From positions 425,349-489,348 of the forward strand of contig JAQGDQ010002376.1 of NCBI GenBank assembly GCA_030141605.1: 64,000 bases of DNA, in the 5' to 3' direction. The translations under genes were made by a program, and so were the position numbers. Source of the DNA: Tubiluchus corallicola. Its lineage: Eukaryota; Animalia; Priapulida. The notes under the pieces are model-generated. The model ran no database searches, was not told the origin of the DNA, and worked only from the letters and a program-made list of their open reading frames with translations. How positions within the stretch are numbered: position 1 is the first letter of the stretch; the number at the start of each line of letters is the position of its first letter. This document shows positions 29,901 through 54,900 of the stretch, in pieces.

Positions 29901-32900
29901 GGTTGGCAACTTTTCTTGCAGCTTATTGCAAACCCAGAAGGAAAAGAGAAAAGTTGCACAGCAAGTTGCGAGAGAAGTTGCCAAACCACTCACACCTGCA
30001 ACTACTCTCAGACAGAAGTTGCGCAGCAAATTGCGAGATTAGTCTCTACGTCTGAACGTGCCAGTAGCATACCTCAGTATAATTTGAAACAACAACAGAT
30101 TTCTCTACATTTTTGTTTGTTGCATGAAAAGAGTACAGCAAGCTAGATAACACAAGGAGTTTCCCTGAATGTTCTGCCAGTGACACGTGCTCTCCAGAAA
30201 ACAATGACAGTATATCGTCAAAAAGGCACAACTGTATGGAATAACAGACAGCCAAAATTAATATGCCATAAGAGTAATAAAACATAAGTTACATGCAGAA
30301 ATTTAGTACAGTTAACTGTGCATGCTTGCACAGACAACAGTAATCAGAAAAATAAGGATTTTGATCAAGAAGTTGATTGACTAAGATACTAAGCTGGCGA
30401 ATTCAGACTCAATTTGTGAAAGGAAATTTATCTTTTTTGAGAGGGATTACAATATTTTGTTTACGTACAGTATGTAGATTTAACAGTACTGCTAATTTAC
30501 AACAGCTAGTGTTCTTGTTGGTAAGACAAAGTTAGTTTCAATTGTAGAAAAGTCATGTTCAAGACTACAGAATGTAAAATACCAAAAGCAAAATCAACAT
30601 CAGAAATCAAAATTTTATAAGACATAGACAATTTATTTTTCTTCTCTTAAGCATAATGCAACAAATCAACAATTGACTGGATGTATGTTCCTTCCATTTC
30701 AGGACTGTGAATTTATAACGATATCATTTTGAAGTAACTTTAAAAAAAATAAAATCTATAATACTAACTAACATGTACCTAATAATAGGCCCAGATCTAT
30801 AATAAAGTCACAGGAAAAAAGTCACGGAAAAAGCCACAGTTCTGGCTAAGGTCAGGGTTAGGGTTATTTTTTTTCCAATGCATTTTGTCAGCAACTTTTT
30901 TACCTGGGATCAGATAACCAGTAATGATAGTAATGCTAGTTGTTACAGTAGTCAGCTATAAGACTAGATCTTAACTTTAATAATGTTTATATTTTAGATT
31001 ACGATAGGAAGCAGTTTTCATATCACTGGGAAGGCTATTCCACAAAATAGACCCTGGAATTTCAGTGACCTGTCTCAAATTTGTGTTGAAACGTTCTATG
31101 TCATAATTGCTGCTGCTTGCAAATCTAGAGTTGTAATCATGTGTTGTGTCTATAGAGTGATAGTAATAAGAAAACAGTACTGGATGAGTGTTATGTTTGA
31201 ATCTGTAAACAAAATTGTTTAATTCTAATTTATGTATGTTTTAGTTTTAGCAGGTTTAATTCATAACACAACGATGTAACATGAGCTCTTCTACTGGCAA
31301 ATGTCATTAATTAAATAAATTTATTTTGATTGATTGTAAGGGGTTTCAAAGCTGAATTAGGGGCAATGCCATGAACAGTCAGAAATGAGTTTCATTGTAT
31401 CTTTATTGATATTATGCCCAATTTAAAAAAAGACATTCCATTAATTTTGCTTATTTTGCTGTTAACATGTTGGAATGGGAATGCCATGCCAATTAATAGT
31501 CAATTATTATTCCCAAGTGTTGTTCCTATATCTGTAATTGTCATGTGGCCTAAAACCAATTATTGCACCAAAATAATTGAGATTCTTTTATCATTTGTCT
31601 GGGAATAGTTTGTTCATCTAGCCCTGTGTTTAGCTACAACTCTGGCAAAGATGTAGTAATCGGTAATTTATGCTACGTATCGTCCATTGTTAAAGATCCA
31701 ACATGCCAGATAATACAGAAACAATTTGTATAACGACTATAACACAAAGCATGGTAAATGAGCAAGCATTCAGTAACTCAGCGAGCGTCTGCTTGTACAG
31801 TGAATGAGGCGCATGCGCATTTTTCCCACGATCTTGTGCTGATAGGCAAGCCTGTTCGAGTGCTTGTTGCTGGAGCTGATGTACAAAGGAAAAGTACGGC
31901 AGAAAATATTGCCCTCAACGCGAAGCACAATGTAGCAATGAATGATTTCAGTGAATTAGTTGAGGAACGTACTGATCATTACAAAACGAATCGGAGAATC
32001 ATCATGTGAAAGAAATTGCCACAAATACCTTCAGTAATGCAAGTTATGAAGATTACGAACCGGCTGTGCCGAGGAGCTTAATGAATGGAAAGCAGTTCAA
32101 ACGCAATTCGATACTCGGGTAAGACGTATTACAAACATATTCGCTCCGCCATATTGACCCCATACTAATGCGATAAATTAGTTAAGGACTGCAATTAGAA
32201 ACGTTTTTTCCAATAACAAGAAACGTCTTATGATACAACAAAAAATTGCTATACGGGAAGAATGTAGCAACATAGTTTATGAGACATTGAGTTTAATTTA
32301 ATAAATGTACCGGCAGTCCATAAATGCAAGTACATTTTTGGTGGGGAGGGGGTTTGAATCTCTCCAAACTTAGATCGTGAGAAACAATTTTAAGTTGAGT
32401 GTAAGAGTGAAGTCATGTGAAAGAAGCTTTTCAAAGCTTAAACAAACCAAAAACTGCTTGCGATCCACAATGGAACAGTCAAAGCTATCTGATCTTTCGG
32501 TTTTATCTGTTAAAATTGACTTAGCAAAAGTAATTGATTTTGATGAAGTAATTGACAACTTTGCAGCAGTGAAATCCAGGAATGGAAAGTTCTGATTGCT
32601 GACATAAATTATAATTAGTAAAATACTGAACTGTTTGTGTTTTAATGCCAGTTTCTTTTGATACTTCAACTAAGAAGTGTATTTTCATATGATTAAAAGT
32701 GCTGCTTCAATGTGCAAATATATCATAAAAATTAAAAATATTAAGTTTTCAATTTAAAATAAACATTGTCAGTATACTAATGTGTGCTTAGCACTTTAAC
32801 TCAGTAGGATGGAAAATAAAGTGATGTTGTCTAGATGATGTTTCTCCTAATCGCCATGCAGCAAGTACTAGCTATGCACATAAGATCATACTAAAGGATA

Positions 32901-35900
32901 CAGTATATAAGCTCCAATGCACGTTTGATACCATGAGTACTGCACCGAATGACACCAACCTTGTGGTTGCCAGATTAGAAAATTAGAAATATGGGACACT
33001 CTTATAATCTCTTTCCATACACACACATATATAATATAAGAGATTATAAGTGTCCCATATTTCTAATTTTCTAATCTGGCAACCATAGGGCAACTGTATA
33101 TATATATATATAGACATAAATTTAAACACGCCTAACACCCAGATCAATATATTATATAAAAGTAGAGACATAAGTTAAAAACATTAAGCAGGGATTTTAA
33201 TGGGTTATGAGGAAAACAAAAGTAAAATCATTTGAAAATATTTATTTAATACCGAAAATGGAGAAATATTATGATTATTTAATAATTACATTTGGGATAT
33301 TTTCATCAAAAGGATCTGAGAAAAGAAAATACAATTATTCATAAAGTTACTAGTAAGAACCCGTAAGAAGGTAGTAAAAATGCATTTTTATCACGAAATT
33401 TGAAAATGAACTAAATACGCCACGGGGGACAAAATTATCAAATATGGGACATGTCCTGTATATAAGGGACGTCCAGCAACCCTAACCCTAGCGAAGCCCC
33501 TGTTCACCAGACAGGCACACCTTAGACGTAGATATTTTTCTTCTCCGTCAGTATATGATTAAATTATTCGTGAGGCAAACAAATAATAAATTTATTTAGG
33601 AGATGGGCTAGGAAAGAGCTCAATGAACAACTTTTAGCTCCTTTGATGATTTTCAAAATTTATAGTAATTCTTTTCAATGGAAGGCATCTGTTACATAAT
33701 AGCAAAATGTTTACTACAACAATGTTGTGAGATACATAAGTTATTAATAACATCCTAGCATTTTAGGAATAACTCATCATTTAAATTTTTGACAGGACAA
33801 AGTTTATAGGCTTCAAAGTAAAATATCCTCTAAAATCTAATAAATCTTAACAATTTTATGCATACTAAAACTGCTGTGATGCCCAGGTATTGCCTTTTCC
33901 ACAGTTTTTGTGTGGCACTCCAGCACTCAGCCTTGGCTTATTTAATACCAGTGATTGTGGCACACCAGTACTCAGCCCTGGCTTATTTAATACCGGCGGT
34001 TGTGACAGGATCTGGCAAAGGATTCTGTGATAATCAGGAATTATCAAGGATAATCCTTTAGATGAAACAGTGAATTGGCAGAAGTGTCTCAGCCCGGTTG
34101 GGAAGATGAATACACTCCCTGAAGGAGATAAGCAGCCCGAATCAGTGTAGTAAGTGAAACAGTTTAAAGTTCATATAGAATCCAGTGGTCATCTATATCG
34201 CATTCACTGACCAGTGCTAGGTTGCGGAGTTGAGCCTAAAAGCACATCAATGTGGGTTCCTGATTGATGAAAGTCGACCCCAAACCTGACTCTTGAGGCC
34301 TGACTCCCAGAAGTTCTTAAAATTTTGATTTTTGAGGCATTTTATTAACCAGACTCAAACCATTAGATGATAGATATTATATTATGAACCTTAAGTAAAG
34401 GTACTGCTTAATATTTATGTTTAAGGCAGGAGTATTTTATTATCAACAGACTGTGGCTTTTCTTTACCTGAAGATCTAATCAGCAAAACATTAGAACCAA
34501 TGGAATTTTAAATGCATTGTTTTAAGCTGCAGACCCTGCATTGATCAGCTTCAGTATTGTTTAATTTTACTTATCTAAGCATATGCCATTATAATTCGGC
34601 TATCACCCTTGCCACAGAGATACTAAAAAGTATTATTATACTGTATTAATAGCATGTAATTATATAAAAATAACTTCCTGAAGTTTTTCTAGACAATAAA
34701 AGAGTAGCTATAAATTGTTGATATTATGATTTATAAATTATTGAACATGTTTTATTTGTTTTGACTTAAAGATTTGAAAGACATGGGGAAGCATTTTGCA
34801 ATTTTTTAACTCATTATCATTGAATATTAGAGCTACATTTATAGCCGAATGACTGTTATAAGTCTGTTGCTACTAAGCTTTAATTATCTGACTTTTTTGG
34901 TGAAACAGTTGTCTTAGCTATCAAAACTGACTAATTTGTTGCTAAAATAGAACATGTGACAGCAATTTTTGCAAAAAGTTAAAAGTCAAATGAAAACTAA
35001 CATGAGAAAACGAATAATTTTTAAGAACAAGAAACAAAGCCATTAGAAGTGCTATTTAGTACACCGCTGTGCGCTATCTTCCGATATGATTTATTGAAGA
35101 CATTTTATTTTGTTTTCCAAACTCTTAGCATCGACTAAGCACGGCATCGAATTGCACCAAGGAAATTCTGTCCTTTTGTCCGTTATGCTACAGATTTTGT
35201 TATGTTACTTTTGTTTTCTATATTATTGTGTTATGGTTTTGAAGTAGTTTTGCAAGGTTGTCTCTCATACCAGTTCAGTTCTTTGGTGTCTTGATCATCT
35301 TAGGCGTGTATTTTTTGTTGCCTCAGATGTGAGATATCAAAAGCCGACAATATACCTTTAGTCTGTTCCCGCAAAATTCAGTTACTTTTTTAGTCACTTT
35401 TCGATTTATACATGCCCATTAAAAAATTTTACGAAACGAAATTGTGTAAATACATGGCAACAATTTCAAAATAGAAAGCATGAATTTTTTTTACTCGAGA
35501 GAGGTACTCTGACTTTTCAGACTCAGAAATAAACACTTGTACTTCAATTACTTGTGTTGGATAAGTAATCCATGTTGTTTATGTTGGGAATTAGGGTTAT
35601 GATTCTATTTAATTTTACTGTAGCATTATTCTTCGAGAAAAATCATTATTTAATGTTTTTAATCTCGAATTTTATATTAGTTAAAGTTAACGTTTTATTC
35701 ACAGGTGAACAATTTGATGCTAGGAAAGCAAGTGAATAGTCTGCACAATCCCTTGTTCAATCATGAATGCTTATGAAATGAACGAAGAGCTGCAAGCTGC
35801 CATTGAACAGTTAGAACTTGAGCAAATCGATCTGTGTGGAGAGCAGGCTGGCGAAAGCTCTATTTCAGAACTGGTTTATACTAACAGCATCAAAAATATT

Positions 35901-38900
35901 ACTAGCAGCGTAACAGATGTGGGCTCAGTACAGCAGCAGCAAGCAGGCAGTCAGACTCGTTCAGCTGTGACTCATGCTACGTATCAGCAGCAGGCTCTAT
36001 CCAGAATAAATGAGTTTAATGTCAGCCTTGAGCTTATGAATACAGCCTGCGTTGATAGTAGAGATGGTTTGTGTGCGCTGGGTACCGGGACCGCTGTAAA
36101 AGATTTTGTCACTTTGGACGAATTCCAAGCTCTGCAGCAGAATCAAATGAAAGAATCATTTTCTGCTAGTGGGTTACTAGAGAGTTTAAACAATAATGAA
36201 ATAACTAATGGTACACCAGAGCATTTAGACAATAATGAAAATGTTTTTGACACTCTACAGAGTGAAGGGTACATTGAAACTGCTATTGATTCATTAGGGA
36301 CATTAGAGAATAACGACGTTGCTGTGACTATTGGCAGCAATGCATTAGATATAAATCTACTGCCGTTCAGCCAGCAAGACTCAGATCATTCGTTGTCTAG
36401 GCAACAACACACTACTTCACAAAAAGTAGAAATCAATAAGCAATATGAATTGGATCTGCCCATAGAAGATGTTACGGAGCAACGTCTTGCTAGTGATGTT
36501 ACCAAGCAGATGTGCAGTGATTATGGTATTGATGTGAAATTCAGTGTGGAAAATTTTACAAGTATGCCTGTAAATAATCAGGATAATGACTTGAATCGTG
36601 ATATAGATGATTCTGATTCTGATTCTTCAGATTCAGATTCTAATTCTGACGACTTTGATAATCAGGACAGTATTCAGAATTCAGTTGCTCCTTTAAATGA
36701 AAAAACTTCTGATAGCATAATTAATGGTTCGGTTTTCGAACGCAATGAAGCTAAAGTGATAAGTGGTTTTCCCATTAGTCTAAACAGTGATAATGTTGAA
36801 CAATTACAAGTAGAATGTAAAATCACAAATTCTCCAGTAAATATTGAAGAATGTCAAAAATACACAATAGAAAATTCCTGTAAGACGATCTTATTCAAAA
36901 CTGATGAACAGTGTGAATGTCTCGACTGTGGTGCATCACTGAGTAATCTTCTGAGTTCACAAGAACATCTTGGATTAATGACAGCCGTTGTGAAGTTGTG
37001 TACATGCTTACAGGAAGGTAGAAAATGTTTACATTATGCAAATGAAGTAAGCACCTCTAAGTTACATGTGAGTGAACTATACAGTTGTCATATGTGTGAA
37101 ATAACTTTTCACAGACTGTCTGCATTAACAAATCACATGGTTATGAAACATAATGATGAGGACTCAACTGACAATCAAAGTGTTGCTGCTAATTACATAC
37201 AACCACCTGCTAGTTTGCAAAAGACCCATAAATGTGGAATTTGTCCAGCTTCATTTTCCAATGTTTTTAATTTGCAAAAGCATGGTAGAGTTGTTCATAG
37301 TGCAATACCAAAACAGTATCGATGTACTAAATGTACTGCTTCTTTTCAAGCCTTGAAGAATTTAACATTACATCTTCGGCTTCACGAAAATGAGCAGCAG
37401 TCATTTGAGTCTCAGCGAATAGATAAAATAGCGACAAAAACCCCAACAGCAGGAACTGATGAAGCCAGTAAGCCTGATCAAGCTAGTAAGCCTGACAGTA
37501 TTGACAAAATACCAGTGAATGGCATTAAGAAGGCTGGGAATACAGATGAGAAATCAATAAAGTGTAGAATGTGCCCGGCTGCATTTAAACATACAGCAAG
37601 CCTTAAAAGGCACATACAAATCACTCATAACAAGATAAAAATGTATTCATGCAAACTCTGCCCAGCTAGATTTGGAGTTAAATCAACAGTTAAAAAACAT
37701 ATGAGTGATGTGCATGGGGGTGTGCCTAAAAAGTATAAATGTCAACATTGTACTGCTTCATACAGAGCCCTGAAGAATTTGCAGCGGCACATGAAACTTC
37801 ATATTGCTAAATTACAGCCTGTACAGGAAAAAAAGAAAAACCAGTACCTCTGTTTTTTGTGTAGCACAAGATGTTCATCAGCGGATGTTCTTAAAGAACA
37901 TATTAAAACCCACTCTGAGACGAAAGAGCCAACGGCAGATATAACAACTACACCAAGAAAAGCACTTCTGAAGATATTTAAGTGTAATGTCTGCTCAGTT
38001 AGTTTTCACAGTCGACTAGACAGGGATGTGCATTTGCAAACTGCTCATGAGAAGGCAAAATCAACACCTGAGCAACAAAACAGTAGCTTGGATTCCAGTA
38101 TATGCAGGGTATGCAAAAACAGTTTTAATTCTAAAGCTCTCTTGGACCAGCACATGAAGCAGTATAAGAAGCTGTATGAGTGTAATGCTTGCCCTGCTAT
38201 GTTCAAAGTATCCACTAACAGAAATAAACACGTGAATAATGTGCATTCTGGTGCATTAAAGGCTTTCCGATGCGATGTTTGTGGAGGTGGATTTCACAGA
38301 GAATATAGCTTGCAAAGCCACATGCTACTGCATAATCAAGCCCACAAAGAGCAATATAAGTGTGATAAGTGTGATTTCAATTGTAATTCGTCAGAACAGC
38401 TGAAGACTCATATCATTTGCAAGCATTCAGTAACTGCACAAAGTCCTGGAATTATCATAATGGACACTCCAACTGTAAGCCTGCAAAAAATCAAAGTAGA
38501 AGATTCACATGCCGAGGCTATTACTATTCAGGAGTCTGCAGACATGGATTTTTGTGAAGATATGGAGCACTGTTGTGACATTTGTGGAAAGTTTTTCATG
38601 AAAGAGTCAGAGTTACTAGTACATGAAAAAGTACACATGGCACTAAAACCTTATAAATGTGGAATTTGTGGTCTAGACTTTTGTGACATGAGTACACTTG
38701 ACATCCACCAAACATCACATACCAACAAGTCATATGAAGCATACACAAAAATGGTTGCCGAGACTTCAAATTCAAGCTGCTATGTTGACTTCCAAAATAT
38801 TGGTATGCGAGAACTACACAGCAGTGGTAATGAAAATCTTAGTAATGAGAGAAAAGTGCCATTTGGGAAGAAAAGAGAAAGAGTTTATGAGTGTGACACG

Positions 38901-41900
38901 TGCAAGAAAGTCTTCAAAGATGGAGGAACTCTGAAAGTTCATAAGCGCATACACACAAACGAAAGGCCATACATTTGTCACATTTGTCAAGCAACATTCA
39001 GACAACACCACCATCTAGTCAGACATGTAGCAAGCCATAGTGATGATAAACCATTTTCTTGTGATGTGTGCGGAAAAAGATTCAAATTAAGCGAATACCT
39101 CACAACACACAAGGCTGTGCATTCACAGGCTAAGAAATTCAAATGTGGAGTATGCGGCAAAGATTTTCGCCTATACAGCGATTTGAGAGCTCATCAGAAA
39201 GTTCATGCATCAAAAAACGCAAAGACTGATGGTATGTTTGACAATAAGCTTGCTTTTGATAGTCATGATACTAGTCACTCTAGGCTTAAACCCCACAAAT
39301 GTCCCGTTTGTAAGAACGGTTTTAAAGTGGTTCGCCACATGAAAATTCATTTGTGGTCACATTCTAAGAACAATATGCACTATTGTCTCACTTGCGGAAA
39401 AAAATTTCAATCTCAAGTTGGCTTAGCTGTCCACAAAAGAATTCACATTGTAAAAAAAGAACTTGAAGAGGTTGTGAATGCAAGCACTAACTTGACGCAG
39501 TACGTGACCAGCACTAGTAAAGGTAAACAGTACCAATGTCCCGTATGTGAAGTGAAATTTGCACAGTCTACCTATCTGAGTGTACACTTGCGAGTTCACA
39601 CAGGCGAGAAGCCATATAAGTGTGAGGTTTGCAATAGTCGTTTTCGACAAAGAGCCCATCTTAAATGTCACATGTTCACTCACACAGACCACAAACCTTT
39701 TTCTTGCAAAATATGTGCTGCATCTTTTAAGCAACTTTCAGCTTTAAAAAAACATGGTTTAGTACACACTGACTTAAAGCCATACAAATGTGATTCTTGT
39801 AGTGCAGAATTTGCACAATCAACCGACTTGCTAAATCACATTATGGTACATAACGAAAATAGACCCTATACTTGTCAAACTTGTTTCGCTACATTTAAAA
39901 CTGAATCATTCTTCAATAGCCACATTAAAGTACACACCCATCTTAAACCTCACGTTTGTGATGAATGTGGAAAAGACTTTCGAATCGCTGCAAATCTAAC
40001 AGTTCATAAGAGAACTCACTCTAACGAAAAGCCATACCAGTGTCAAATCTGCTCAAAGCGATTTAAACAAACAGGACACTTGAAAGTTCATTTGTCAATA
40101 CATGCAGACTCGAAACCATATAAATGTGATTCTTGTGGTGCCAGTTTTAGGCAACCAGGAAACTTAAAGAGTCACCAAACCGTTCACACAGATGAAAGGC
40201 CACATGTATGTGACATTTGCCAATCAGCTTTTAAAACGTTTAGTTATTTGCAAAGCCACAAGCGAATACATACAGATTTGCGTCCATATAGCTGTACATG
40301 TGGAAAAACATTTAAAACACCAGATGGATTGAAAGCGCACGAGAAAACTCACACAGATGAAAAGCCATATGAATGTCGCCATTGTCATGCACGCTTTAAG
40401 CAGCAGCCTCACCTCAAAACTCATCTACTTACACATAGTACTCACAAACCTTATTGCTGTGACACTTGTGATGCACGCTTTAAACAGTCATCCCACTTGA
40501 AAGTTCACATGGCTGTTCATAGCGATGTGCGACCATTTCCTTGTCATATTTGTGGTGCGGCATTTAAAACATCAACTTCACTCAGTAGTCATAAGCGCAT
40601 TCACACGGACCTGAAGCCATATGTATGTGACGTATGCAACAGAGCCTTTAAATTTTCGGAAGGACTAAAATCTCACAAGAAAACACACTCAGCTGACAAA
40701 CCTTTTTCATGTGACCAGTGTGGAGCATGTTTTAAGTTGGCTGGTTATCTCAAAAGCCATATGCTAGTTCACACTGAAATACGACCCTATTGTTGTTCTA
40801 CATGTGGAGCTACTTTTAAAACAGCCAGTTACCTCCATAACCACAGCAAAATTCACACAGACATTCGACCTCATATTTGCCACATTTGTGGAAAAGGTTT
40901 TAAAATGTCATCAAACTTGCGAGCTCATGCACGAACTCATTCAAACGAGAAACCATATTCTTGTGACCAATGCTCTGCACAGTTTAAGCAAATTGCTCAT
41001 TTAAAGATGCATGTCAGAACTCATTCTGATTTGAAACCCTATAAATGTGATTCCTGCGAATCTCGTTTCCGACAGTCTGCGCATTTAAAAGTTCACATGG
41101 CTGTTCACACTGAATCACGACCATTTGCTTGTGAAATTTGTGGAGCTGCATTTAAAACACAATCATCATTAAACTCACACAAGAAAATCCATACAGACAT
41201 TAAACCTCATTCATGTGATGTATGTGGGAAATCATTCAAATTTGCTGTTGGATTAAAAACTCACAGGCGAATTCATACAAATGAGAGACCTTTCTCTTGC
41301 GATACATGCCATGCTAGTTTTCGACAGGCTGGCAATTTGAAAAGTCATATGGCAGTGCATACAGATGTTCGACCGTACGCATGCCCAACATGTCAAGCTG
41401 CCTTTAAAACATCATACTATCTCCAGAATCACATTAGAATACACACGACTGCTCGTCCATTTCAATGTGATGTCTGTGAAAAATCTTTTAAATTTAAGGA
41501 GGGATTACAATCTCACAAAAAGACACACACAAATGAACGCCCATTTGAGTGCGATACATGCCATGCACGATTCAAGCAAGCTGCTTATCTCAGAAGTCAC
41601 ATGCTTGTACATTCAGATGAAAGAAATCATTTTTGTGACATTTGTGGATCAGCTTTTAAAACTGCTGTTTATCTTGCCAATCATAGGCGCATTCACACTG
41701 ATATGAGACCATACAAATGTGATATTTGTTACAAGGATTTCAAGCTGCCCGATGGCTTAAAGGCACATAAGAAGACACATTCCGATGAAAAACCATACTC
41801 GTGTAATATATGTGGTGCAAAATTCCGGCAAACAGCCCACGTAAAGGCACACATGTTAACCCATTCAGATGCTAAACCTTATAAGTGTGACACCTGTGAT

Positions 41901-44900
41901 GCTTGTTTTAAGCAGTCAGCTCACTTAAAATCACATCTTGCTGTACACAGTGAAGAAAGAAAGTACTCATGTGATATTTGTTATTCTGCTTTTAAAACAT
42001 CTACTGCTCTAAACAGTCATAAAAGAATACATACTGATATAAAGCCTTATATATGTGCTACATGTGGCAATGCTTTCAAAACACCAGACGGATTGAAATC
42101 TCACCAGATTAGTCATATGGATGAACGTCCGTTTGAATGTGATACATGTCATGCTAAATTTAAGCAATCCACAAACTTGAAATATCACATGGTGGTGCAT
42201 TCGGAAGAAAGAAATTATACATGTGATATATGTGACTCTGCTTTTAAAACTATGGCATATCTTACCACACATAAGCGTATTCATACAGAACTGCGTCCAT
42301 ACATTTGTGAATGTGGAAAAGACTTCAAGACACCTGATGGACTGAAATTGCATAAACGTACACACACAGGTGAGAAGCCATACTTCTGCAGTTTATGTGG
42401 TATGAGATTCAGGCAGTCAGGACATCTTAAATGTCACATGCAAACTATACATTCCGATTCTAAGCCATTTAAATGTGACACATGTGATGCATGTTTTAAA
42501 CAGTCAGCAAACTTGCGCAGCCACATGGCCGTACATTCTGATATTCGTCCTTATCCATGTCCTATTTGTGAGGCCACTTTTAAAACATCTACTTCATTAA
42601 GCAGCCATAAACGAATACACAGTGATATTAAACCACACATTTGTGACGTATGTGAAAAAGCATTTAAAACATCAGAAGGACTGAAGTCACACAAACACTC
42701 ACACACAGATGCTAGACCCTTTGAGTGTGATACATGCCATGCCAAATTCAAGCAAGCAGGAAATTTAAAGAGCCACATGGTAGTGCATACTGAAGAACGT
42801 CCATGGACTTGTGATGTTTGTGAAGCCTCCTTTAAAACACAAGCATACCTTCATAGTCACAAACGTATCCACACTGATATAAGGCCTTACATTTGTGAAT
42901 GTGGAAAAGATTTTAAAACACCCGATGCATTAAAACTTCATAAACGTACACATAGTGATGAAAAACCGTACGCTTGTGAAATTTGTCATTCAACATTTAA
43001 GCAGCTTGCCCATGTACGAGTTCACATGGCTACACATTCTGATCTCAAGCCATATAAATGTGACACTTGTAGTGCTAGCTTCAAGTTGGCAGCATATTTG
43101 AAAACCCACATGATTGTTCACACTGAAGAAAGACCATGGATATGTGACGTTTGCCAAGCTGCTTTTAAAACGTCTAGTTATCTTAGCTCACATAAGAAAA
43201 TTCACACAGATTTGAGACCATACATTTGTGATCAGTGTGGAAAAGACTTCAAGCTTCCTGATGCCCTGAAACTTCACAAGAGAACACATTCAAATCTAAG
43301 ACCGTTTTCATGTGATGTATGTGGTCAGAAATTTCGGCAAACTGCACATGTTAAAGCACACATGCTTACGCATTCAGATTCAAAACCATTCAAATGTGAT
43401 ACTTGTGATGCTTGTTTTAAACAGTCCGGGAATTTGAAATCTCATATGACAGTACATTCTGATGTTCGGGCTTACTGTTGCCCCATATGCGGAACAGCTT
43501 TTAAAACAACCACATCATTAAACAGTCACAAACGGGTTCACAGTGACATTAAGCCTCATATCTGCTCCACTTGTGGCAAAGCTTTTAAAACTAGAGAAGG
43601 GCTAAAGTCACACAAATACACACACACAGATGAACGTCCATTTGCATGTGATACATGCAGTATGAGTTTTAAGCAATCCTCCAATTTAAAAAGTCACATG
43701 ATTGTGCATACTGATGTAAGACCACACGTTTGTGATATATGTCAGGCAGCTTTTAAAACAGTTAGTTACCTCACTAGTCATAAACGAATTCACACAGATT
43801 TGAGACCATATAACTGCGAAATATGTGGAAAAGATTTCAAGTTACCAGATGGATTGAAACTCCATAAACGAATACACACCAATGAAAAACCTTTCTCGTG
43901 TGATACATGTCAAGCTGCCTTCAAGCAGTCTGCTCATCTCAAAGTTCATATGACAGTTCATACAGACGAGAGAAATCACATTTGTGATATATGTGAATCA
44001 GCTTTTAAAACTGCATCATACCTAGCCATTCATAAAAAAACACACAGTGATGTAAGACCTCATATCTGTGATATCTGTGGCAAGGGATTCAAGTTTACAG
44101 ATGGGCTGAAAGCTCATAAAAAGACTCATACATCTGAGAAGCCATACCAATGTGAGATATGTTTTAGACGATTTCGACAAGGAGGACATTTAAAAATACA
44201 TCTTCTTACACATTCTGACTCAAAACCTTTTAAATGTGACACATGTGATGCATGTTTTAAACAGTCTGGCCATTTAAAGGTTCACATGTCAGTACATTCA
44301 GATGAAAGACCTTTCCCTTGTGCAGTGTGTGGTGCTGCATTCAAAACATCAACATCTCTGAGCACCCATAAACGTATTCACACTGACCTGAGACCCTATT
44401 CCTGTGACTTGTGTGACAAAGCATTCAAGTTTTCCACAGGCTTGAGAGCTCATAAAAAAACTCACACAGGAGAAAAGCCATATAGCTGCAAGATTTGCGG
44501 TGCTCGATTCAGACAAATTGGTCATGTGAAGGTACATATGACAACTCACTCAGACCTGAAGCCATATAGCTGTGACACATGTAACGCTTCTTTTAAATTA
44601 GCAAGTTACTTGAGAAGCCATATGGTTGTCCATTCTGAAGAAAGAAAATGGACTTGTGACGTTTGTCAAGCATCATTTAAGACAAATACCTACCTTAATT
44701 CGCATAAGAAGATACATACAGATTTACGGCCACACATTTGTGATATATGTTCCAAAGATTTCAAGCTGCCGGAAGCACTGCGCTTACATAAAAGAACACA
44801 CACTGACATTCGACCTTATTCATGCGAGCTGTGCAATGCAAAGTTTCGCCAAACAGGACATCTCAAGTGTCACATGCAGACAAGGCATTCAGATTTGAAA

Positions 44901-47900
44901 CCATTTAAATGTGATACCTGTTCTGCATGCTTTAAACAACCTGCAAATTTAAGAACTCACATGCTAGTGCACACTGATGAAAGACCACATCAATGTCAGA
45001 TATGTGGTGCTGCTTTCAAGACAACTACTGCTCTTAATTCTCACAAACAGGTGCACAGCGATGTACGCCCATTCATTTGTGCAAGATGTGGTAAGTCATT
45101 CAAAACCCGTAATGGGCTGAAATCACATAAAATCACTCACACTGATTCTAAGCCCTTTGAGTGTGATACATGCAGTGCCTGTTTCCGACAATCAGCACAT
45201 TTGAAGGTTCACATGACTGTTCATTCTGACTACAGAGGATATCCTTGTACAGTATGTGGTGCTGCTTTCAAAACAGGTACTTCTTTGAAAAGTCACAGTC
45301 GTATACATACTGACATCAAGCCCTTTATATGTGATGTGTGTAACAGAGCATTTAAGTCAAAAGATGGGTTAAAACATCACAAGATAACTCATTCTAATGA
45401 AAGACCATTTGCATGTCTACAATGCAGTGCTAAGTTTAAACAAGCCACTTATTTGAAAAACCATCAGTTAGTTCATTCAGATGTAAAACCATTTCAATGC
45501 CAAGTGTGCTCAGCTGCTTTTAAGCTGCCGGCTTATCTTAGGTCACACATGATGATTCACGGAGATTTAAAACCGTACCAGTGTCAGATATGCAATAAGC
45601 AATTCAGACATTGGAGCACGCTGAAGATCCATACAAGAACACACACAAATGAACGGCCTTATGAATGTGAGACCTGCCATAAGATGTTCTCACAAAATGG
45701 TCATCTAAAGTTGCACATGATGATTCACTCGGGCGAAAAGCCTTACTCGTGTACCGTGTGTAATAGGCGTTTTCGACAACATAGACACTTATTAACGCAC
45801 AAAGTAAAACATGTAACTGATCGACCATACCAATGTAATAGTTGCCAATCTGCTTTTAAAACACATACTTCATTGCAGTCTCATAAACGAATTCACACTG
45901 GTGAAAAACCGTATGAGTGCACCACGTGTTGCACAAGTTTTAGACAGCTGAGTCACTTAAGGAGGCATCAACAATGCCACAGAAACCCGGCTTCAAGGTT
46001 GAAACCATTTAAATGCACTTCTTGTCCAAAAGCATTTAGAAAGGCCACACATCTCCGAGCACATGAAATTGTCCATACTGATAGTAAGCCTTTCAAGTGC
46101 CCAATCTGTGATGCAGAATTCCGTCACGGACGTTCGCGTAAAACACATATGAAATGTCACCAGCCTACACTCATGCATCAGTGTGATGTGTGCTTACAAA
46201 GCTTTAGTGAAGAGGAAGAACTAAGATCACATTCTGAAAGTCATGTACAAGAAAGTGCATATACATGTGAACAATGTGGCGAAAAGTTTAAGAGAGCATC
46301 GCTTTTGTCAGCTCATACTGCATTACATGAGAGAGAGAAATTATCTGCTGATGGCTACATTGAATTTGATAGACCGTATCCTTGTTCACAGTGTAGTGCA
46401 CAATATGAATCAAAACAAGGATTAGCAAAACATATGCTTGTTAGACATGCAACACTTGAAGACCTGCGTTGCAACTTGTGCCACAACACATTTACCTCAT
46501 TGCAGTTACTACGTGAACATATGAGAACTCACAAAGAAAAAGAACACATGTGCAATGTATGCAACAACACTTATACCTCAAAACATTTATTACGTATACA
46601 TATGAAAATTCACAAACATACTAGTAAAGAACATGTTTGTAATGTGTGTGGGAAAGTTTTTAAAAATGCTAGTAGCCTTTGTCATCATAGAGAAATTCAT
46701 GTTGAAGGCAGACCTCATGTGTGCACAAAATGCAATGCGTCTTTCAAAACAAAGAAAACTCTTTGGGCACACAGTAGGATTCATACAAGGGAAAAAGTGT
46801 TTTCTTGTAATAAATGCGGTGAAAAGTTTTCAGTAAAGGAACAGCTACTGCAACATAAGCAAAGTGCTCATTCAGTTGGTAAGACTAAGAAATGCTCTAC
46901 TGCCAGTAAGAATTATGACTGCGAACAATGTGCTGCCAGTTTCAAGTTCCTGACACTTTTAAAACAACACAAAGAGGCCCACAAAACTGCCATATGTGAC
47001 AAAACACAACTTGTGAAAGGAACTGCCAGCAAACCACGAAAGACACACAAGTGTCCCGAGTGCAACAAATTGTTTACTCATTCGTGGAATTTGAAAAATC
47101 ACCTGTATTCTCATCGTGCAAAACCCGTTTACAAATGTAATCTTTGTCCAAGTACATTCAGTAGGGAAGCACATTTAGTTAGGCACATAGCATGCCATAA
47201 AGGAAAAGAATTGTCAGTAAGTGTCAAAGTGCAAAGAATTCCTCATTTGCAAGAACAGCGCAATATGTCACAGACAGTTAATGATGCCCCAATACCAACT
47301 CCTGAATTCAATTATTTGCATAACACAAACGAAATAGTTTTAGACAAAATTCCTATTAAGCAAGAACCCCTAGATTACTCCCTTGTGGAGGATGATACCT
47401 CCAGCCCTGTGCATGAAGAAGGTAGTAATGTAGATGATGCTAACTTCTGTATTGAAGAATGTAACATAGAAGAGTTTTACCTTTCACCATATTTGGGTGA
47501 AAGCAACAAAGAGACAGTAGGTGAAGGCTGTTCTGCTATCACCATTAAGAAGGAAATGTCGCACTTCTTGTAAGTGGCTAATGAAAACTTTTATATTTAC
47601 AAAATTGTCTGCAAAACTCACTTATACTTATACTGCACAGTGTAGTGTACTATATTGCTAATTTTGTTTAATTGTTTGAACCTTGCACCACTTCTTTATT
47701 AAAATGTAGCGTAATTTATCCATATTTGTTGCACAAGTTATGGAAGCATGTTAAGACTATCGTATAACTCATGATAAGCTTTGGGTAAACCTTTGTAAAA
47801 TGAGTTACTTGCTGCAGATGTTTTGTCACATTTTGAATACAAAGATATTTATGGTTTCTTGCAGCAAAAATGTAAGTCATGTATCTATAAGATAAAAGTT

Positions 47901-48803
47901 GCTGGAGCTACATGTACTGCTTTTCGTTTGCTAGCAATTGGGTATTCCCAGCTCTAGTTCTGCTCAAGTGATATATAACGGGCTTCATGAAGCCAAGTGA
48001 CCTGAATGATAAAGTCCTTGCTGCTTCAACCTCAGAAAGCATTGATGAGATAGTCTCCAAAAATCATCACATTAGTGTATTGTTTTACTCAGTATTAGTA
48101 ATAGAGTTAGTGTCACTAACACTGTGTGTAATTTCAATATTATGTGTAAATTCAATCTGATGTGTTGTCTGTGTAAATCCAAGGTTAGTCGTTATGGTGC
48201 ATGCACATTTGCTCTTCCAAACTATAAGTATTATTCAATTCACTTTTTTTTATGTTTTACATCTCGTATTGCTTCGATTTCCTAAAGAAAGGTTCATGGA
48301 TGCGTGTATATTTGTCAGCTAAAGTTGCCTTAAGAGTTGATAAAATATGAATGAAATTATTGTAGGGTTATGTTATTGCTAGTATGTTAGTACCATTTAC
48401 TCGATGTGACTTGATATTGTCAAGCATTAGTGCCATTTATTTAATGTGCAAGCTGCACAAATAGTATTGCTCGTAGATGTACTTGTAACTTTGTCAGTTA
48501 TTCATGTTGTGAACTAGAAAAATTATGTTATTGAACATGTAAATAATTTTAATGTACTTAGAAGTATGATTGTAAAATGAGATGTATAGAACATGTTGGA
48601 AACCTAAGCACGAAAGATGTTCGCTGTTCTCTGACATAATTTAAGTGTGCACTGTGTCTGATGTGCATGTGCTTTTAATTTGCTAAGTAAACTTACAATG
48701 TATATGATGATGTATATTAAATCAAATCCCAGGAAACCGACCCTAAAAACTTTTGTACACATAAAAATAAATGCTGATTAACTTAAATACATTAACAGTA
48801 CTA

Positions 48804-48841
<38 letters not shown>

Positions 48842-48845
48842 CATC

Positions 48846-48901
<56 letters not shown>

Positions 48902-51900
48902 TACCATTACCTTCATGTGTTTAGTTCAAAAAGTGAGTTTGAGTATGTCGAATACATTTATCATATATCGTATTCACGTAGAAAAGTTTTGTCTTATTTT
49001 GACTGGTTTGTAGTTTGTGTTTTAGTATTAACACCAAGTGTAATATACACTCACACATTTTATTATGTTAACAAACTAATTAATAAACACCACAGTAATC
49101 ACAATGTTTTCTTTGGCGTTTTTTTATGTAAAGCTTAAGTCTTATTACTGCTTTTCTTCAGAAATTGTGTTATCATACATAAATTACTTGTGGTTCACAA
49201 GTTAAGAATATTTTTGATATTTTTGCATTAAAGTGCAAACTTGCCAAAAGCATGACTTTAAACGTGGCAAACACAAGGTAATACGAAGATACTATCAATT
49301 AATGGCAAAGCCTAAATGTGCCAGCCCAGAACCTTGTTCATCTTCATAAATGATCCTGTAAGATGAGACACTGAACTACGTTGAGGGCTCAATGCTTCTA
49401 GATACTTATATATTCCGAAAAGAAGGTAAACAACTTAGGGCAGTTTGTCAGATAAAGCTGCCTGTAAGCAGTTTTCCTGTTAGTCACTTATCCTTTTACT
49501 AGCCAAGCTCACTATTATTTAACCTTAGGCACTCATCTATCACCGTGTTTGGATAAAATAAACTTAAACTCAATAATTCTCATATGAATCTTAGAATAAA
49601 ACAGCAGTATCAAGATGGTAATGTAAAACTTCATCACAAATGCTTTATTTCTGTAATGACAGTGTTTTGGCAGCCATTGCGCAATATAATTACCTCATTG
49701 TTATCCTCTTCACTGGACCTCTGTCGCTCCGTTTTCTGAGCTGATTTCCAGATCAGTTGAGGATGGTTGCACAGTTTCTTGAGTGTTGCTATACATGCTA
49801 GATGCACTCTGCCATCAGCTATTACAAAATTAATAAATTCAGTGCAAATTAATCTGCATCAAGTTAAAAAGATGATTATGTAATTTAGCATTACTACAGC
49901 ATTATTATTTTTTTATAATTTTAACTGCAAGATTATTATTAATGATGGACAGAATAAGTATTAACTTTTTTAAACCAACCTAGTGAAGAAGGAAAAGTTT
50001 AACAGTAACAGGTCAAATGTCATGACCAATAGACCACACAGCACCTTGTGATCAAGGCAGATCTTAATTAAATCTTAATAGATTACCAATTAATGCAGCA
50101 TATCTAAGTTTCACTCAAACAAAGTTTCACTTAATTACTAACTGATTAGATTAATGTTTTTATAATTTATTTACAGCCTAGATTAATCCAAGTGCAACTG
50201 TTTAACCCCTGTGTAATATTATGATTAATTATTTATAAACTTGATTGTAAGATTATTATTATAATCATAGAACAACAATCAACATTTTTCTTTAATTTGA
50301 TTTATAGGTGGAAAATTAGGTAGTGTTTTGATAAATTAACACTTTTTCAATGCTAAGCTATACAAAATACAAGTATAGAGAGTCAATTTCCTCATAAAGT
50401 TGCAAAATGCACAACAGTGTTATTTAAAATGTTTTTAATTTAAAAATAAATTGCCTGTGCACACTGACACACAAATTCTTCTGTTTGTTGGGTATTACCT
50501 AACTAATTATAACGCAGCTATAGCTAAATCATGTAGCATTTTTTACACATGCGATACACCAATACACTCAAAAGAACATTAATTTAGATCGACATATAAA
50601 GAAAAACATAATTAAATTTAAATCAAGAATTTACCTGTGTTGTAGTCATCCAAGTATTGTTTTAAAAGTTGTGAATGAAGGATGGCTTCATATACTTTCA
50701 CTTGGAATGATGACGGCTGACAAAATATTACCATTTCCACTAAAACCATACCATTAATTTTTACCATTATTTATAAAATAACTTATTTATGATTGATGAA
50801 ACACATATGTGGTTTTAAGAAGTTTTTTTTACAAAAAGCACAAAACACAAAAAGTTATTGCAGCACAATTAAACAAATACCTGAAGTTAATGAATTTTCT
50901 TAAAAATTAGATTAGTAGCTAAAATTTCAAGGTAAACGGTAAAAATTAAAGTTAACATTGCATGATTCAATATATACATTACACGAATGTCTCCTCAATT
51001 TCTAGTGATAAACGTAATGTTATTTCAGTTCTTTTACTGTATGGAAAAAATAGTTATTTTTGATGCTGATAATGGAGCATCGTAGATGATAATTTCCTAC
51101 CTTTTGATGGTAAATATGCATTATTAACGCTCTGAGTGCGACGTAAAACAAACATTTGTGCTAGCCTCGCTAAGTCATTTTCCCGAGCTTTTCCAAATTC
51201 AACATGTTCCTTGGAAGCTTCTGGCTGCTTGGACAGTAAAATTGGATTTTCCCAGAACTTCTTGAATGTGACACATAAACCTGACAAAACATGACTACAA
51301 TATAATGTATGGGGTTTGCCTGCAATTCCTGAGCCCCAGTAAGCCCCCCCCCCCCCACTAAAAATACATCAAAGGAAAATGTGTAGGTAAGCAAGAGACT
51401 TGAATAGTGATCTCATTAATACAGAGCATTAACAAATTAGCCAAAACTAATAACCTAAAATTGAAGAATAGGCATGCATAAAATATCAAAACACTTTGTC
51501 ACCATTAAACACAAGCTATTTCATGTTTGTACATTCATTGACTGATTTATCTATCATTTATTTCGCTTGTTTTAATGTTAGTATGGGGTTTTGTAGTCTA
51601 TGATGCCCTGGTGTGTGAACCCAGTTAGTCTATATGTAAGTATGGCACTGGCCCAGACACATACGATTAATGTATTGTGAAATTATAACAAAGTACTTTT
51701 ATATTTTAGGATTATATAAAAATTATCATTTCACTGCTAGAATCATTGATTATGTTTTAGTATTTAGGTAAATAAAGACACAGGGACCCCTATTTATTTT
51801 AGTTTCTAATTATTATGGGAGCAGTCACTCACTGTTGGTCTGAATAGTTAACCGAAGATATGACACTGGATCCAAAGGCTATGGACCACAGAAATAGAGA

Positions 51901-54900
51901 AATCCTACTGCGCAGCAGTTTGCGCAGTTAGTGTCGCCCTAGTGGCACAGCAGTATGGACTGTTGTTGTCAGGTACGCTATAGCGCAAGCTGTTCGCACA
52001 CCGGTGTGTACTGTAACAGATGAATTGATGAGACCACCAAAGTCAGGCCGGTCGACAGGTGCTCATAAATTGCTCAGCAGTGAGTTGCAAAATCACAAAT
52101 AAAAATATCTTTTTGAATTTCCCAAGGATGCAGCCAGGTAATTATAACAAAATGCTAATTGTAACACAGTTTTGTAACTTTTGTTACAAGTTAAATATTT
52201 TGTTCATTAAGCAAAGACTGCAAGGCCTACATCTGTCTTTGGCGATTTATAGCAGCTGTTATGAGTTGGAGTTGGTTATAAAATCACGTTGAACAAACGG
52301 AGATGCATTTACGACATTACTCCTCTTTTTTATTGTCAGTGAACAAAAAATAACTAAACGAAACATTAGAGCTGTCATCCTAAGCAGCTGACATTACTTC
52401 CACCTAACTACTAACAACTAACTAACAAGGTCAAAACCAAGTAACAGAATTCAGGTGAGAAGCCAACCTGGCGCATAAATTAGAATCGCATAACATCTTA
52501 TATATCATGTGTAGACGTCACTTATATTTAGCCTAATTTTTTTAAGATCCAATTAGGTTTACGTCAAAATAAATGTTCATTAAATACAGTTTGTTTACAT
52601 GTAAAAAATGTACTGGTATAAGCGTACTAATAAAACACCTGTGGCTAAATCCACAGACAAGTCTTGATAAATATTATTTAGTGATAGGCTTAAATTAATT
52701 GATTTTATACAAGCCTGTGTGCTAAGGGCAATCATTTTATATAGTTAAATATATAGGCTCAGCTTCATAGAATCTTTGTATGTAATAATGCATACATCAT
52801 ACATGTATATGAGTGTGTGTGCATGGGTGTATCAAGATGTTACGACGCCCTAGGCTGGTAGTTCAATCCCACTCATCTCTACTACTGTATTTATTATTAA
52901 TGTATGGAGCACCGTATGCAATTACTTGTTGTGTGCATGCGTGCGTGTGCACATTATTTATATAAAACCTACAATATAATATATGTGTAATTATATAGAT
53001 TAATTGCAGGGCACGTAAATGGGTGCAATTTTTAATGTGCCAAATCCGCTACCTCTCATTTGGAGTAAAACAACCAAGAAACAAATGGCAGAACCTTCAA
53101 CAAAAGGAAGAAGGATCTCTCTCTCTCTGTGTGTGTGTGTGTGTGTGTGTGTGTCTGTCTCTCTCTCTCCCTCCCTCCCTCTCTCTGTCTATCTCTCTCT
53201 CTCTCTTCCTCCCTTTCACTGTTTCTCTTTCTTTCCCTCCCTCTCTTTCTCTCTAAGAGAGGGAGGGAGAGAAAAATTAATAAATCAATAAAAATGCATT
53301 ACTTTGCATTACTTATTTACATAGTAGGCAGCCCATCACGCAGTCAGCTAGCCTCTTTCCTCAGGAAGAACAATAAAATTTTACTTCCAAGAAAACTGAA
53401 GAAGTATTTGCAAGTACATAATACAAATTTATTGCTACAATTTTTTCCTTTTCATGAAATGTTTTCAGTTTTTTTTAAACTAATAATTGCTTTTAATTGA
53501 GATATTCTTCTTTTATTAAAAACGCAAAAGTGATTTTGGCTTATCGAAATTGCGCGTATGGCCAACATTATTGGTGAACCTAAGAATATTATTAATGCAG
53601 TCAACGCGCCGCTCAAAATTTTTTAATCATCCGCCGTTCGATGCCGCCAGCGTAGCCGCTAATCGCAAAAACGAAATACGTAACAAAAGGATTTCATCAC
53701 TTCCTCTTTTTACACTTTGACTGGATCAGTCCGTAAAAAAGATTGCTGCTCTTGCCGTAGCATTCGTTGAGTTTGCCAGGATAATTTTGTCCAGACTCCT
53801 AAATGCTGTTAGAGTAAGTCATGTGTGTATTAAAAGTTCTTCGTTAGGTATGAATTGCTTATCTATTAACTTTGGCTTCCTTGAGACTTGTGACAGCGTA
53901 CCTCGTTAGCGATTTCAGGTTAGTAATAGTTGGTTAATAAAGTCACTAACAGGAAACATCAAAACTGCACAGATTTATGAAAAATAAACTATTTTATTAA
54001 AAACAGTAAAGAAGTTTCACAGCAACAGGCACATAGCATGCCATAAAGGAAAAGAATTGTCAGTAAGTGTCAAAGTGCAAAGAATTCCTCATTTGCAAGA
54101 ACAGCGCAATATGTCACAGACAGTTAATGATGCCCCAATACCAACTCCTGAATTCAATTATTTGCATAACACAAACGAAATAGTTTTAGACAAAATTCCT
54201 ATTAAGCAAGAACCCCTAGATTACTCCCTTGTGGAGGATGATACCTCCAGCCCTGTGCATGAAGAAGGTAGTAATGTAGATGATGCTAACTTCTGTATTG
54301 AAGAATGTAACATAGAAGAGTTTTACCTTTCACCATATTTGGGTGAAAGCAACAAAGAGACAGTAGGTGAAGGCTGTTCTGCTATCACCATTAAGAAGGA
54401 AATGTCGCACTTCTTGTAAGTGGCTAATGAAAACTTTTATATTTACAAAATTGTCTGCAAAACTCACTTATACTTATACTGCACAGTGTAGTGTACTATA
54501 TTGCTAATTTTGTTTAATTGTTTGAACCTTGCACCACTTCTTTATTAAAATGTAGCGTAATTTATCCATATTTGTTGCACAAGTTATGGAAGCATGTTAA
54601 GACTATCGTATAACTCATGATAAGCTTTGGGTAAACCTTTGTAAAATGAGTTACTTGCTGCAGATGTTTTGTCACATTTTGAATACAAAGATATTTATGG
54701 TTTCTTGCAGCAAAAATGTAAGTCATGTATCTATAAGATAAAAGTTGCTGGAGCTACATGTACTGCTTTTCGTTTGCTAGCAATTGGGTATTCCCAGCTC
54801 TAGTTCTGCTCAAGTGATATATAACGGGCTTCATGAAGCCAAGTGACCTGAATGATAAAGTCCTTGCTGCTTCAACCTCAGAAAGCATTGATGAGATAGT

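Follow-up and report, generated by a model that had tools for sequence, protein, structure and literature searches.

A giant C2H2 zinc-finger gene of Tubiluchus corallicola with 77 fingers in one unbroken array and an old repeat of three- and four-finger modules

Results

The window analysed in this work is a 64,000-nucleotide stretch of the genome of the priapulid Tubiluchus corallicola (GenBank assembly GCA_030141605.1, contig JAQGDQ010002376.1, positions 425,349 to 489,348 of the forward strand), and all coordinates below are positions within it. Its longest open reading frame (ORF), 11,811 bp without an internal stop (translation of window:35763-47573(+)), encodes a C2H2 zinc-finger (ZNF) protein whose central array appears to have grown by old duplications of a unit of three plus four fingers. 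An initial annotation had read 3936 codons without a stop, which translation reproduces exactly. The strand opposite the ORF is closed to reading, and since the runner-up in the window is a Bel/Pao polyprotein of 1,493 amino acids (aa) and all remaining ORFs stay below 200 aa, the ZNF ORF is not a product of chance. The gene, including part of its 5′ untranslated region (UTR), is laid out as follows:

35692..35762, plus strand: putative splice acceptor and 5′ UTR part of the exon, with a T-rich tract and AG at 35703-35704
35763..47573, plus strand: ZNF ORF, 3,936 aa and stop, 449 kDa, with 109 intact and 2 degenerate C2H2 fingers
35763..37085, plus strand: N-terminal 441 aa, acidic, with one degenerate finger at residue 386
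37086..39446, plus strand: fingers 1-19, in small clusters with spacers
39537..45980, plus strand: fingers 20-96, a 77-finger array without a break, at the standard 28-residue spacing
40041..45392, plus strand: fingers 26-89, 18 modules of (P)-A-B-C finger classes
46014..47198, plus strand: fingers 97-109, followed by an acidic tail up to the stop

The pattern C-x1-4-C-x12-H-x3-5-H/C finds 109 fingers in the protein, and a stricter one 106; two more, at residues 386 and 781, lack the last ligand, so that the annotated figure of about 110 fingers stands while its single degenerate finger becomes two. The protein contains the tandem of at least five C-x2-4-C-x12-H-x3-5-H fingers with a Phe/Leu core that defines classical C2H2 arrays, and the core is well kept in the modules (Phe in 64/64 fingers, Leu at +4 in 60/64). 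Over the whole protein only zinc-finger families pass the Pfam cut-offs, PF00096 and PF13465 by far, and no transposase is found by Pfam within the ORF.

The ATG at 35763 is the earliest possible start, because an in-frame TGA lies upstream of it at 35733-35735. An intron in the 5′ UTR, with the coding sequence within one exon, is the likely arrangement, and the single coding exon of the initial annotation thus holds at the level of DNA, as one ORF, with the splicing deduced from the DNA. An out-of-frame ATG further upstream (35717, plus strand) opens a 19-codon frame, 35717-35776, which runs across the main start and could lower the translation of the ORF. The N-terminal 441 aa are likely to be mostly disordered: the net charge of residues 1-440 is -50, residues 1-446 match no Pfam family above cut-off, and a single-sequence AlphaFold model of residues 1-526 is uninformative (pLDDT 34.5). 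The earlier failure to recognise a KRAB, SCAN, BTB, ZAD or SET domain is borne out by Pfam, which reports no KRAB, SCAN, BTB or ZAD effector domain in residues 1-446, no PR/SET, KRAB or SSXRD domain in the ORF, and nothing at cut-off in 35 upstream plus-strand frames of at least 32 aa (30290-35760), where exons shorter than 32 codons or another acceptor are still possible. An in-frame stop between the putative acceptor and the ATG is likewise at odds with an effector exon upstream.

The array is not an assembly expansion, an outcome that would have undone the initial annotation: internal divergence, flat short-read depth and two other studies all speak against it. Within the ORF the longest exact repeat measures 38 nt and no 40-mer is shared, and internal BLAST matches are 63-73% identical (among the 41 matches listed). 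Run X1, of short reads, shows flat depth over the ORF, flat and single-copy even at 88% likeness, and contigs of 1.8-5.4 kb with 0-4 differences; as X1 may be the source of the assembly, it is not independent. Run X4, from a second study, has at least five pieces in the ORF with 0-2 differences, and run X5, from a third, contains a relative, with at least eight pieces at 90-96% identity and insertions of 9 and 3 bases as the only gaps listed. That we are looking at an expansion or at an unexpressed relic is therefore hardly credible with the gene present in three studies, even if a minor X1 contig lacks one base at 36852 (depth 46 of 235) and no run recorded as RNA is listed as containing the gene. 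In run X6, tentatively taken for RNA, at least four pieces of 161-219 bases at 91-95% identity fall in the ORF; as the ORF makes up 63% of the stretch compared and the run may be DNA, they were not counted as expression.

Fingers 26-89 form 18 modules, ten of four fingers (P-A-B-C) and eight of three (A-B-C), with the classes, which always follow one another in the same order, assigned by visual inspection of the helices (P = Q-x-G/A-H; A = Q-x-x-N/H/Y; B = T-x-S/T-Y/S; C = T/F/L-x-D/E-G). When the helix positions are omitted, 63 of the 64 fingers still have their nearest neighbour in the same class. Similarity peaks at lags of 3/4, 7, 10/11, 14, 18, 21, 25, 28, 32 and 35 fingers, and the best period is 3.52 fingers, or 10.56 bp at 3 bp per finger. 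Within classes the proportion of synonymous differences (pS) is 0.80-0.85 and that of nonsynonymous differences (pN) 0.26-0.29, and fourfold-site identity across modules, 0.377 against 0.340 for random, is at chance level. All ten P fingers have Gln at -1 and His at +3, all 18 B fingers have Thr at -1, positions -1 and +3 are among the best-kept variable sites (pN 0.00-0.18 in P, A and B), and class-specific residues reach into beta-hairpin and post-His positions. With silent sites saturated and class residues kept, the duplications must be old and the classes under purifying selection; judged from these substitutions, it is selection rather than recent copying that maintains them. When the 18 A-B-C blocks are placed in a tree, one branch is supported, which unites eight blocks, seven of them from four-finger modules, and the forks elsewhere are mostly weak; the tree is consistent with an ancestral unit of seven fingers.

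This mode of evolution differs from that of PRDM9, which also has a long one-exon array from internal duplication and whose finger subsets bind alternative sites (PMC5440498). PRDM9 combines near-identical backbones with variable helices, whereas here the copies are 63-73% alike, the silent sites saturated and the helices kept. A homogenised minisatellite of the PRDM9 type was ruled out, since finger pairs are at most 77% identical in DNA, no tandem repeat is called over the array, and -1 and +3 are kept.

The same data bear on whether the gene could simply encode a transcription factor or transposon repressor of the ordinary, lineage-specific kind, in which a few clusters would be specific and the long array a tolerated excess left by old slippage. 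Many animals do have hundreds to thousands of tandem zinc-finger ORFs, in numbers linked to how many transposons they carry (10.1101/2022.11.29.518450), the acidic N-terminus fits an activation region, and the protein changes rapidly outside the fingers. On the other hand, the residues typical of each class, in helix, linker and backbone, have been retained while the silent sites became saturated, which excess fingers would not show; run X1 has, by its flat depth, no close paralog, unlike clustered young families; and no helix diversification is seen. We hold this explanation to be rather improbable.

In their contact residues the module fingers depart sharply from other C2H2 fingers. None of the 64 carries Arg or Lys at -1, +2, +3 or +6, and 73 consecutive fingers lack both at -1, +3 and +6, where 49% of 12,027 background fingers carry one (the background consists of search matches, mostly vertebrate and insect, and is not a census). 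Gln or Thr occupies -1 in 50 of the 64, Ala, Gly, Ser or Thr +2 in 45, a small or aliphatic residue +6 in 58, and Tyr +3 in 14. A basic residue at -2 is universal (64/64 against 17% of the background), and the array has a net charge of +1.95 per finger. Lys or Arg at -5, found in 85% of 8,325 linked background fingers, occurs in 17/18 C fingers and only 2/46 P, A and B fingers, and is thus kept in about one finger per module. The linkers retain their length, but exact TGEKP is reduced to 4 of 76 (40% in the background), and at linker position 2 Gly (5/76 against 78%) has given way to Asp or Glu (57/76 against 7%). What had been described as a canonically linked array of 77 fingers is, accordingly, unbroken and canonical in linker length, though not in linker sequence.

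Could the period itself have been selected, so that like fingers face one side of the helix? The array would then be a wrap matched to helical pitch, measuring out A/T tracts of 10.5-bp periodicity, with one backbone-anchoring C finger per helix turn. The period of 10.56 bp would suit this, as would the near confinement of Lys or Arg at -5 to C fingers, the run of lag peaks from 3/4 to 35 and a module tree that points to a seven-finger ancestor. However, the order of threes and fours is no more even than when shuffled (phase test for helical register, p=0.15), and since 3-, 4- and 7-finger periods are present in other arrays compared, a mixture of threes and fours yields 3.5 without further cause. 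Finger-bound DNA is, moreover, usually underwound, at about 11.3 bp per turn. The pitch-matched wrap is in our view likewise rather improbable, and no less doubtful is its boldest form, a natural TALE-like zinc-finger ruler with a superhelix of 18 turns, one backbone anchor per turn, on AT-rich DNA of 10.5-bp periodicity over at least the length of a nucleosome; were it true, the protein would mark, or compete with, nucleosomes on satellite or centromeric DNA.

The departure from the DNA-reading pattern at -5, -2 and linker position 2 invites another interpretation, already raised in the initial annotation, namely that the periodic basic array is a scaffold for RNA or ribonucleoprotein, holding long structured or repetitive RNA after the models of Xenopus Xfin and the RNA-binding fingers of TFIIIA. 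The Tyr residues that 14 of the 64 module fingers carry at +3 could stack on bases. Against such a scaffold stand the standard 28-residue spacing over 77 fingers and the combination of Gln at -1 with Asn or His at +3, which is a usual DNA-reading pattern. We think it unlikely, if worth serious attention. Since beta-hairpin and post-His positions carry class-specific residues too, and since each chain offers 111 zinc sites, the array might also be a structural rod or zinc store, presenting repeating surfaces to partners or polymers without reading nucleic acid sequence; base-contact sites -1 and +3, however, are among the best kept, and this reading is very unlikely.

Around the gene, the window is intron-rich animal DNA with 35% G+C and a CpG observed/expected ratio of 0.56. 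An intron of a helicase gene of the RAD54 family, presumably RAD54B to judge by a motif, contains the ZNF gene in antisense orientation, and the 3′ end of the ZNF gene recurs in another intron of the helicase gene:

about 27200-57450, minus strand: RAD54-family helicase gene with many exons, host of the ZNF gene
30289..49636, minus strand: host intron (approximate), bounded by the exon-bearing frames 49637-49858 and 30049-30288
54027..55331, plus strand: copy of the ZNF 3′ end, 1,305 bp, 99.8% identical to 47181-48484

The flanking helicase exons carry SNF2 (57236-57445) and Helicase_C (28968-29300; best PDB match 1z3i, zebrafish RAD54-like), while the two exons nearest to the ZNF gene were recognised by eye and not confirmed by Pfam. 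The duplicated stretch 47181-48484 comprises the last ~130 codons and 3′ flank, and the X1 depth at its copy, 278 against 181-196, fits a copy present on one haplotype only. A retrocopy origin was rejected, neither a poly(A) tail nor a target-site duplication being seen. Self-BLAST of the window finds no repeats flanking the ZNF gene, and a gene borne by a mobile element is ruled out by this, by its single-copy depth and by the lack of a transposase in the ORF.

Other features of the window are an open Bel/Pao polyprotein of 1,493 aa at 58960-63441 (plus strand; protease, RT, Peptidase_A17, integrase, DUF5641), which, by its CpG observed/expected ratio of 0.89 (0.56 in the window as a whole), seems to have inserted recently; a gene of the metallophosphoesterase fold, seen as two exons at 1695-2282 (minus strand, Pfam), which we take to resemble VPS29; exons of a putative lipid-binding gene at about 12250-19100 (plus strand) with a weak GOLD_2 match, presumably SEC14-like with a GOLD domain; a 30-bp minisatellite at 14054-14648 (19.8 copies, 91% matches); a weak relic of a hAT dimerisation domain at 32374-32592 (plus strand); and, adjoining this relic, a palindromic high-copy MITE-like element at 32964-33480.

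Searches for relatives of the protein returned generic finger proteins. Residues 1-440 have no match among 6,832 long candidates; the array regions match generic finger proteins only, at 22-41% (best 120 of 337) and 25-45% identity (best 120 of 5,422); and residues 1-1046, against 50% representatives, give 150 listed matches, all generic, with no best stretch before residue 404. The exact sequence is absent from the protein collection searched, and the ESM Atlas returns generic finger clusters or unnamed ones with low recognition values. Among the proteins searched, no ortholog was found, although in lists swamped by generic fingers a genuine but short one might fall below the matches listed. 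Among 360 finger proteins retrieved, the longest linked arrays have 41, 35 and 30 fingers and three proteins have at least 100 fingers: the exceptional length claimed earlier is therefore confirmed for the unbroken 77, and not for the total. A literal word search of open-access text found no publication on proteins with 50-100 fingers, and the available portion of PMC13218726 gives no finger counts.

The two other giants examined, the insect proteins P0006 (Callosobruchus analis, 131 fingers) and P0047 (Calliphora vicina, 100), share with the ZNF protein at least 100 fingers in one predicted chain; their fingers lie in clusters of at most nine and five, with long spacers and no shared fingerprints, and their gene models are unverified. 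Also comparable are P0017 (Heteronotia binoei LOC132571818) and P0023 (Pantherophis guttatus), with 41 and 35 linked fingers, mostly without Arg or Lys contacts, and internal repeats of 2-4 fingers. These differ in carrying KRAB/SCAN, in fingers that are 57-66% alike at all lags and in other helices; they are predictions and not orthologs, possibly a parallel solution for AT-rich targets. P0143 (1,645 aa, 37 fingers, on an 8.4-kb Logan contig), the best match to finger pair 14-15, has a 23-finger array and a similar layout, yet is only ~31% identical and has TGEKP linkers and no module repeat. As an ortholog it is not established (z=4.8 for the pair, other best-of-set values 4.9 and 4.5), and from its sequence it is a possible distant relative.

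Discussion

The results of this work lead us to read the locus, tentatively and with a probability of roughly 0.45, as a single-copy animal C2H2 gene whose array arose from old duplications of a 3+4-finger unit and whose product is predicted to bind AT-rich repeats or DNA of low complexity weakly and in many registers, by way of interchangeable modules. In the usual finger code, Gln at -1 with Asn at +3 reads xAA, Gln at -1 with His at +3 reads xGA, and Thr at -1 reads xxT; by this code, unreliable as it is for Arg-free fingers, a module would favour an A/T-rich 9-12-mer. The small polar and aliphatic residues at -1, +2, +3 and +6 would read A and T flexibly, in the manner of SALL4, which binds many AT-rich sequences at micromolar affinity with Thr at -1, Gly at +2, Asn at +3 and Ile/Val at +6 (PMC9838217). 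The likeness to SALL4 cluster 4 is one of chemistry only (Arg-free helices with Thr/Gly/Asn/Val-type residues, PMC9838217): SALL4 has a finger pair with a TGEKP linker, and no SALL entry appears in the 60 best PDB rows or among the listed protein matches of the array regions.

How such an array might act is suggested by other long zinc-finger proteins, the motifs of which are mostly much shorter than 3 bp per finger predicts, while extra fingers add residence time (PMC10287918) and sub-arrays bind short or alternative sites (PMC10287918; PMC5440498). TGEKP linkers lock fingers onto DNA (PMC5440498), and their replacement here suggests weaker and looser binding per module. Each module would be weak, and 18 of them would provide avidity and many registers, allowing the protein to coat or bridge AT-rich repeats (satellites, transposon relics, heterochromatin) rather than to wrap 230 bp at once, while partners would be recruited by the acidic N-terminus and by the fingers scattered at the ends. 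Binding of AT-rich DNA by avidity seems the most likely mode in view of the SALL4-like make-up, the replaced TGEKP linkers and the short motifs of long arrays. The contiguous footprint of about 230 bp first proposed for the array is not supported, as long arrays mostly show short motifs (PMC10287918) and the Gly linkers and basic residues at -5 are mostly gone. An architectural or repeat-reading role fits the internal periodicity and survives to that extent, without the contiguous footprint on which it had been based.

Several observations weigh against our preferred reading. The finger code performs poorly on fingers without Arg, and the loss of Lys or Arg at -5 in 44/46 P, A and B fingers, together with that of the Gly linker, could mean that the ligand is not B-DNA. 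Nor is the Arg-free trait unique, since squamate KRAB/SCAN arrays share it (gecko P0017 has an Arg-free run of 40 fingers). Compared with run X5, the array diverges by ~4-6% in most of the pieces listed (10% in one) and the N-terminal part by 5%, and between residues 464 and 590, 15 of 22 changed codons are non-synonymous, a comparison that uses 24 of the 40 rows listed out of 408 rows of differences. With the array diverging no less than the N-terminus, present-day constraint on it may be moderate.

Both the fold and the type of gene are known. Like polydactyl C2H2 proteins (human long zinc-finger proteins; KRAB-, ZAD- and FiNZ-type), the protein has 28-residue spacing, one large exon and a lineage-specific character; it differs in having 109 fingers, 77 of them unbroken, where some human proteins exceed 30 (PMC10287918), and in being single-copy, with no effector domain, an old higher-order repeat and non-TGEKP linkers. 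To see in it the best candidate for an undescribed system, as was done initially, goes too far, for what we have is a single gene from a known class of fold and not a system of several parts. The searches made turned up no counterpart for its unbroken length, for the old higher-order repeat of 3+4 fingers or for the pattern of its contact residues. The widest survey of metazoans limited ORFs to 10,000 bp (10.1101/2022.11.29.518450), below the 11,811 bp of this one, so that such genes may be overlooked rather than rare, which suggests that a class of giant single-exon ZNF genes has been missed so far.

Why long zinc-finger proteins have fingers far in excess of what their motifs require has yet to be explained (PMC10287918). 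With 64 fingers in four conserved classes and 18 repeats, the gene of T. corallicola offers an extreme test case for surplus fingers, and one of unusual clarity: as its four classes are repeated 18 times, modules singly or in pairs, as well as shifts of register, are open to direct assay. If the period does track the DNA helix, it would add a new rule to the design of very long finger arrays, whether these are natural or engineered.

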